A stretch of DNA of 64,000 nt. Source: Escherichia coli (GTDB taxonomy: Bacteria > Pseudomonadota > Gammaproteobacteria > Enterobacterales > Enterobacteriaceae). The stretch is taken from NCBI RefSeq assembly GCF_024700885.2, contig NZ_CP117016.1. One strand, written 5' to 3'. Position numbers and translations under genes: made by a program. Positions 61,713-61,790 of this stretch are shown here, one piece after another. How positions within the stretch are numbered: the stretch's first letter is position 1; every line of letters starts with the position of its first letter. Below the pieces are notes generated by a model, which saw only the letters and a program-made list of their open reading frames with translations, was not told the origin of the DNA and ran no database searches.

Positions 61713-61790
61713 GCGGACCTCTCCCTGTTAAAAGCCTCACATTATACGGGGTACTACAAAAAAAATGCAGTACCCCGGTGTAGGGAGGTT

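Follow-up and report, generated by a model that had tools for sequence, protein, structure and literature searches.

The spacer between elaB and menF of Escherichia coli carries a strong inverted repeat beside a TATAAT element, which raises the question of whether this repeat ends the transcript of the upstream genes, regulates menF, or does both. A first-pass annotation of the sequence had proposed each of these roles. The window analysed here is a stretch of 64,000 nucleotides of E. coli DNA, and in its open reading frame list every gene around elaB and menF lies on the minus strand, with menD next after menF. The features of the locus are collected in Table 1; MG1655 coordinates equal window coordinates plus 2,318,931, a conversion that was checked.

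The 201 bases around the repeat are 100% identical to those of K-12 MG1655 and have a single match in each of 5421 of the 5426 complete E. coli genomes, and a 70-base query around the repeat was found in 5420 of the 5426. Window MenF shares 98.4% identity with K-12 MenF, though the elaB-menF spacer is identical. Over 70 nt, the E. coli spacers are identical in 4058 genomes and have 1-3 differences in 1363, about a quarter.

Table 1. Features of the elaA-elaB-menF locus, in window coordinates.
Feature	Position	Strand	Basis
elaA	62612..62151	minus	ORF list and annotation
elaB CDS, 101 aa	61791..62096	minus	ORF list; RefSeq annotation of the identical K-12 locus
elaB stop codon TAA	61793..61791	minus	sequence
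CUCCCU in elaB 3'UTR, complementary to menF SD AGGGAG	61782..61787	minus	sequence comparison
Outer imperfect palindrome, Escherichia	61727..61795	minus	minimum-energy fold
Repeat arm CGGGGTACT	61747-61755	plus	sequence
13-nt loop ACAAAAAAAATGC	61756-61768	plus	sequence
Repeat arm AGTACCCCG	61769-61777	plus	sequence
Terminator-type hairpin	61747..61777	minus	sequence, fold; kept in ~30 species
Hairpin RNA 5' arm	61777..61766	minus	
Hairpin RNA 3' arm	61758..61747	minus	
-10 hexamer TATAAT of the menF promoter (-13..-8)	61741..61746	minus	sequence, conservation, mapped start
Mapped 3' end of elaB / elaA-elaB mRNA	61743 (MG1655 2380674)	minus	Term-seq and SMRT-Cappable-seq
Mapped menF transcription start	61733 (MG1655 2380664)	minus	Yan 2018 Supplementary Data 2
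menF Shine-Dalgarno region AGGGAGAGG	61718..61726	minus	sequence; conserved in spacer alignment
menF CDS, 431 aa, GTG start	60417..61712	minus	ORF list and annotation

Structure of the inverted repeat

On the sense strand the spacer consists, in order, of the elaB stop codon TAA, 13 nt (AACCUCCCUACAC), the hairpin, TATAAT, GUGAGGCUUUUAAC, the Shine-Dalgarno (SD) sequence AGGGAGAGG, UCCGC and the menF start codon GUG. The first-pass annotation had described the repeat as a perfect 9-bp stem with an N13 loop, and CGGGGTACT-N13-AGTACCCCG is found exactly so at 61747-61777. The TATAAT that was said to follow it on the minus strand directly adjoins the stem (61746..61741). Between the elaB stop and the stem there are 13 nt, and 34 nt separate the stem from the menF start codon at 61712.

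A repeat search found longer arms of 12 nt, 92% complementary and 7 nt apart. In the minus-strand RNA the 9-bp stem is lengthened by G.U, C-G and A-U pairs to 12 bp, including one G.U pair, and is closed by a U7 loop (61765..61759). The hairpin alone has a folding energy of -20.9 kcal/mol, and with this energy and its 12-bp stem it has the stable, GC-rich stem-loop of an intrinsic terminator. A 58-nt stretch of minus-strand RNA that contains it reaches -26 kcal/mol (z = -6.0, with 0 of 200 dinucleotide shuffles as good). The minimum-energy fold of 101 nt (-38 kcal/mol, z = -4.3) contains in addition an outer helix, in which GUUAAAACCUC (61795..61785) pairs with GAGGCUUUUAAC (61738..61727) around the hairpin, the -10 hexamer and the menF start. 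A reading of the repeat on the plus strand was rejected, as folding is poorer for that strand's RNA (-24.2 kcal/mol, z = -4.2) and the site does not lie at the end of any plus-strand gene. An origin in a repeat family (REP/BIME, ERIC and similar) or a mobile element was also rejected, the sequence being found at one place per genome (median 1, highest 2).

A perfect 9-bp inverted repeat is not rare by itself: perfect repeats of at least 9 bp with loops of up to 15 nt occur at about ten loci in the 64 kb, and shuffled sequences average 3.75 9-mer hits. It is context rather than count that establishes the elaB-menF hairpin, namely its position, its folding energy, its single copy in 5420-5421 of 5426 genomes, its conservation in many genera and the published transcript ends. 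The other perfect short-loop repeats of at least 9 bp lie at window 296-318, 3223-3254, 4008-4040, 6605-6630, 14407-14430, 31082-31105, 37904-37933, 43464-43488 and 46055-46076. Most are terminator-like in appearance, and the last matches the nudI 3'-end sequence printed in the table of Adams 2021.

The 3' end of the elaA-elaB transcript

The Term-seq data of Adams et al. 2021 (PMC7815308, supplementary file 1) contain a 'primary' elaB 3' end at 2380674(-), printed with its flanking sequence. In this file, which covers three growth conditions, the end is listed three times, with scores of 54,112 and 221,851 for two of the entries. It corresponds to window 61743, 4 nt after the stem and within TATAAT, and the RNA ends ...CCCCGUAUA-3'. 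The SMRT-Cappable-seq data of Yan et al. 2018 (PMC6131387) give the same end at 2380674 for elaA-elaB RNAs, labelled 'novelTTS'. Both published maps place the in vivo 3' end a few nucleotides after the stem, in agreement with the proposal that the hairpin is the elaB terminator.

Termination at this site is incomplete. For a start upstream of elaA, at 2381565, there are 30 reads: 10 of them stop at 2380674, and 16 continue at least 50 bp beyond it (median extension 199 nt). Operon variants are listed both for elaA-elaB and for elaA-elaB-menF (PMC6131387). Read-through is in the majority in this one long-read dataset, where the numbers are small (16 vs 10 reads), and this counts against termination as a model. 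With 4 U in 8 nt, the tail UAUAAUGU falls short of the at least 5 U in 8 directly 3' of the stem that define a U-tract, and a consensus promoter and terminator scan did not call the main hairpin. We consider the hairpin probably to be a leaky, end-forming terminator for elaAB: it works like one, and is not filed here as a canonical intrinsic terminator because of the failed U-tract. The same scan called as terminator-like a weak alternative 5-bp hairpin at 61772-61789 (minus), in which the 3'UTR segment ACCUC pairs with GGGGU of the left arm and the loop U-run follows. This structure would compete with the main hairpin; as a terminator it was rejected, since it does not agree with the mapped 3' end.

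An unlikely alternative is that the hairpin is an exonuclease barrier, with transcripts ending further downstream (e.g. by Rho in poorly translated menF) and 2380674 a processed end. The interrupted U-tract and the lack of a terminator call would suit such a barrier, yet the first six bases of the tail are all A/U, a weak hybrid compatible with intrinsic release. A 3' end just 4 nt from the stem is compatible with trimming, and a median read-through of just 199 nt means that many RNAs end early in menF; however, the Rho-termination table of Adams 2021 (PMC7815308) has no entry for elaB or menF, in a study whose authors say that Rho sites may be under-called, and in related genera a canonical T9 terminator occupies this position.

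In our preferred reading, as a leaky terminator, polymerase arriving from elaAB would form the hairpin and then be released at UAUAAU, a weak hybrid of A/U pairs only. As this tail is interrupted and is not a true U-run, release would be only partial and the terminator leaky, and the absence of a call in the terminator scan has the same cause. The stable hairpin may then protect the elaB 3' end, and, with some of the polymerases from elaAB halted inside the menF promoter, it would lessen occlusion of that promoter.

The menF promoter

A separate cap-selected start at 2380664(-) gives rise to menF-menD and menF-menD-menH transcripts (PMC6131387). This start lies 8 nt past TATAAT, 10 nt past the elaB 3' end and 14 nt downstream of the hairpin, and identifies the adjacent TATAAT as the -10 hexamer of the menF promoter. 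A hexamer near TATAAT, with a start 6-9 nt downstream of it, is as expected for sigma-70. At the 16-18 bp spacing there is no -35 hexamer near TTGACA, the best candidates, CTGCAT and TGCATT, matching at no more than 2 of 6 positions, and for this reason the menF promoter was not called by the consensus scan.

The DNA of the hairpin occupies positions -44 to -14 of this promoter. The earlier suggestion of a menF regulatory hairpin can be kept at the DNA level, where the palindrome forms part of the promoter, and fails at the RNA level for menF-promoter transcripts, from which the hairpin is absent. The first-pass annotation had also staked its reading on transcript ends and starts coinciding with the hairpin, and both the elaB end and the menF start do so.

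The mapped menF start is a U at the head of a conserved run at 61730-61733 (GGCUUUU in E. coli, GGUUUUU in most genera). A pyrimidine start in a T-run is unusual, and could reflect a mapping imprecision of 1-2 nt or slippage-prone initiation. The Cappable-seq 2016 supplements have no entry for the elaB-menF region, and a literature search found nothing relevant on elaB with menF, on menF start mapping, on menF ChIP or on menF promoter work before 2005.

Conservation of the spacer

An ElaB-based scan, with one genome per species, yielded 80 loci, in about 45 of which menF follows elaB. In many Enterobacterales loci (L003-L082) elaB is followed by menaquinone genes; in Erwinia and Pseudescherichia-type loci menF is missing and menD comes directly after elaB, and most Pantoea loci have a different gene next. 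Some 30 species in about 20 genera keep a spacer of the form ...CTCCCT-aaac-GGGTACTGC-(loop)-GCAGTACCCCGTATAAT-gtGAGGTTTTTAAC-AGGGAGAGG-tccGCGTG. These genera include Escherichia, Citrobacter, Salmonella, Enterobacter, Leclercia, Lelliottia, Silvania, Phytobacter, Kosakonia, Trabulsiella, Yokenella, Huaxiibacter, Intestinirhabdus and Pseudenterobacter. In the approximately 30 species the hairpin has a folding energy of -12 to -22 kcal/mol and ends 0-2 nt before the -10 hexamer. All 32 aligned sequences have TATAAT (TATACT or TATAGT in a few species) at conserved spacing, and the hexamer is also found in genera that lack the palindrome. The menF start codon is GTG in nearly all species with the conserved spacer.

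The cores of the two arms, GGGTACT and AGTACCC (window 61769-61775 and 61749-61755), do not vary among 31 distinct sequences that represent about 20 genera, and the distance GGTAC...GTACC is 25 +/- 1. Among the 31 sequences variation in the stem is confined to the outer and inner pairs, together with the loop, and no compensatory changes occur in the core pairs. RNAalifold, applied to 32 sequences, kept just 4 invariant pairs with no covariation. As the stem does not covary, the comparative data give no independent proof of an RNA structure.

Six loci of genera without the palindrome (L012, L013, L017, L058, L064 and L067) still carry ACC(N)CGTATAAT. Three of these (L012, L058 and L017) have a canonical stem with a T9 or T-rich terminator 15-20 nt upstream of the -10 hexamer / CGTATAAT, which shows that a terminator just upstream of the menF promoter is a conserved architecture. 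In Pluralibacter the left arm is kept and the right arm has decayed. Taken together, the invariant arms, the persistence of ACC(N)CGTATAAT, the terminators of the other genera and the Pluralibacter locus suggest, at the level of sequence comparison, a constraint on the promoter DNA besides that on the RNA hairpin. Double use as terminator and as promoter DNA probably explains why the arm sequences are frozen instead of drifting with compensation. A dual-function sequence can freeze in evolution in this way, and the absence of covariation is therefore no argument against an RNA hairpin.

Natural variants of the hairpin occur in E. coli. In MS8345 (L084, ST131-type) the first base of the RNA 3' arm (window 61755, sense strand) is changed from A to C without compensation, and the folding energy of the hairpin falls in strength from -20.9 to -16.6 kcal/mol; ECZP248 (L002) has a T7 rather than a T8 loop run (equivalent to window 61759-61766).

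A candidate operator

The frozen arms also bear on a quite unlikely reading, in which the palindrome would serve, mainly or in addition, as the DNA operator of a dimeric factor acting on the menF promoter, with the RNA hairpin secondary and SdiA as a candidate. Arm cores that are invariant, without compensation and at a fixed spacing would fit such a site, but a sequence that serves as both terminator and promoter spacer could become frozen with no factor involved. The palindrome lies at a repressor-type position, the left arm outlasts the right in Pluralibacter, and ACC(N)CGTATAAT persists in genera that lack the hairpin; all three favour a protein-binding role.

A promoter of menF that depends on sdiA is on record. 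For a fusion to the menFDHBCE promoter, Schwieters and Ahmer 2024 (PMC11619404) report weak activation by sdiA/AHL in Salmonella, ~105-fold lower expression with sdiA in E. cloacae and no sdiA regulation in E. coli. No defined SdiA binding site was found in the literature, and binding of SdiA at the palindrome is putative. As the palindrome is equally present in E. coli, where the regulation is not seen, we treat the link to SdiA as a lead only.

Other dimeric regulators were considered on the basis of half-site spacing and rejected. The LexA (SOS) box CTGT-N8-ACAG does not fit, the palindrome reading CTG-N11-TAG in the window and CTG-N11-CAG in relatives, one base too long, with the LexA-like right half mutated in K-12. 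The TrpR half-sites GTACT...AGTAC are N13 apart in the palindrome, against N8 in the TrpR operator, and a lux-type CTG-N10-CAG would require N10 in place of the N11 present.

Read-through RNAs and the menF ribosome-binding site

It is highly improbable that the hairpin is an attenuator or riboswitch-like leader of menF: it does lie 35-65 nt upstream of the menF start codon and is included in read-through elaAB-menF RNAs, but it is no 5'-leader element of the menF-promoter mRNA because the mapped start lies downstream of it, and it belongs to no known RNA family in Rfam, a scan of 60000-64000 giving no match at the hairpin even at E = 10 (three chance snoRNA-type hits fell elsewhere). The hairpin can affect menF only through the promoter DNA (-44 to -14) and through elaAB read-through RNAs.

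The read-through RNAs have a further feature. The CUCCCU segment of the elaB 3'UTR is complementary, together with its flanks, to the menF SD and start region (61718-61726), and this segment would exist only in RNAs that read through from elaAB. The complementarity is long and covarying in several genera (loci L010, L039, L046, L056, L071 and L072). In Leclercia CUUCUCCC pairs with GGGAGAAG, reaching -29.8 kcal/mol with flanks, and the corresponding anti-SD and SD partners are AAAUCCCCUCCC and GGGAGGGGAUU in Phytobacter, GAACCUCCC and GGGAGGUUC in Trabulsiella, ACCCUCCCU and AGGGAGGGU in Salmonella, and CUCCCCCG and CGGGGGAG in Pluralibacter. Over 21 non-redundant species the cognate duplexes average -20.3 kcal/mol, compared with -17.5 kcal/mol for deranged pairs (z = -5.7); a reversed-segment control gave z = -2.0. 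In most species the SD and start region is predicted to be less accessible in the read-through RNA than in the menF-promoter RNA. These predictions suggest a fold-back of the read-through RNA that would occlude translation of menF.

In E. coli the anti-SD pairing is marginal. The duplex has an energy of -11.5 to -16.6 kcal/mol, a strength of pairing equalled by 7% of background windows, and the predicted accessibility of the SD and start region is 0.38 in the read-through RNA vs 0.47 in the menF-promoter RNA. The dominant outer helix in E. coli is that of GUUAAAACCUC with GAGGCUUUUAAC, in place of the anti-SD pairing.

Two further loci have additional sequence in this region. In Silvania confinis (L014, ~2306-2345) the elaB 3'UTR contains a near-tandem duplication (TCTCCCTGCCAA / CTCCCTGCCAA), the distal copy of which pairs better with the menF SD. 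The menF 5' leader of Yokenella regensburgei (L063, ~2373-2393) has an extra 21-nt perfect hairpin, GAACCTGCCTCAGGCAGGTTC, between the conserved GGTTTTT and the SD.

Discussion

We conclude, with a probability of about 0.8, that the palindrome is the end-forming stem-loop of the elaA-elaB unit and that its DNA is merged with the menF promoter. The elaB 3' end and the menF start are both already present in public genome-wide datasets, and the finding is real, explained and compact but ordinary. An exact account of the locus is that the end of the elaAB unit and the transcription start of the menaquinone operon share the same 40 bp. This has a practical consequence for elaB deletions and menF promoter fusions, in which loss of the hairpin is also loss of the upstream part of the menF promoter.

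A more ambitious reading, which we hold to be doubtful, is that the spacer is a conserved three-in-one switch that combines a leaky terminator, a promoter with a frozen palindrome (possibly the site of a dimeric regulator) and a predicted fold-back helix. SdiA, the sole factor reported to affect the menF promoter, would possibly be that regulator. If the spacer were such a switch, elaAB transcription in stationary phase would not drive MenF synthesis, and the RNAs made from the menF promoter would stay translatable. Should the fold-back or the operator prove true, the locus would be a small example of insulation, in transcription and translation, between neighbouring units, and would still be modest. 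Only two parts of the locus might be worth an experiment, namely the frozen arms and the covarying anti-SD helix.

The elaB site resembles the intrinsic terminators with read-through catalogued by Yan 2018 and Adams 2021, and is itself in both datasets. Like them it has a GC-rich stem-loop just past the stop codon and a 3' end a few nucleotides on, and gives operon variants through partial read-through. Unlike them, its tail UAUAAUGU is not a U-run, the long U-run lies in the loop, and the tail also serves as the -10 hexamer of the promoter that follows.

As a promoter, that of menF belongs with sigma-70 promoters that have a consensus -10 and a poor -35 hexamer, sharing with them a perfect TATAAT, a start 8 nt on, a short conserved leader, an SD and a GTG start codon. 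It differs from such promoters in that a conserved palindrome of 31 bp makes up its -35 and spacer region and encodes the terminator of the upstream gene as well.

The predicted pairing of the elaB 3'UTR with the menF SD recalls the fold-back inhibition of IS10 transposase translation in transcripts from outside the element, reportedly described by Davis, Simons and Kleckner in 1985. In both cases only RNAs started upstream carry the segment complementary to the downstream ribosome-binding site, and RNAs from the gene's own promoter are without it. Unlike that of IS10, the elaB-menF fold-back is a prediction, strong in several other genera and marginal in E. coli.
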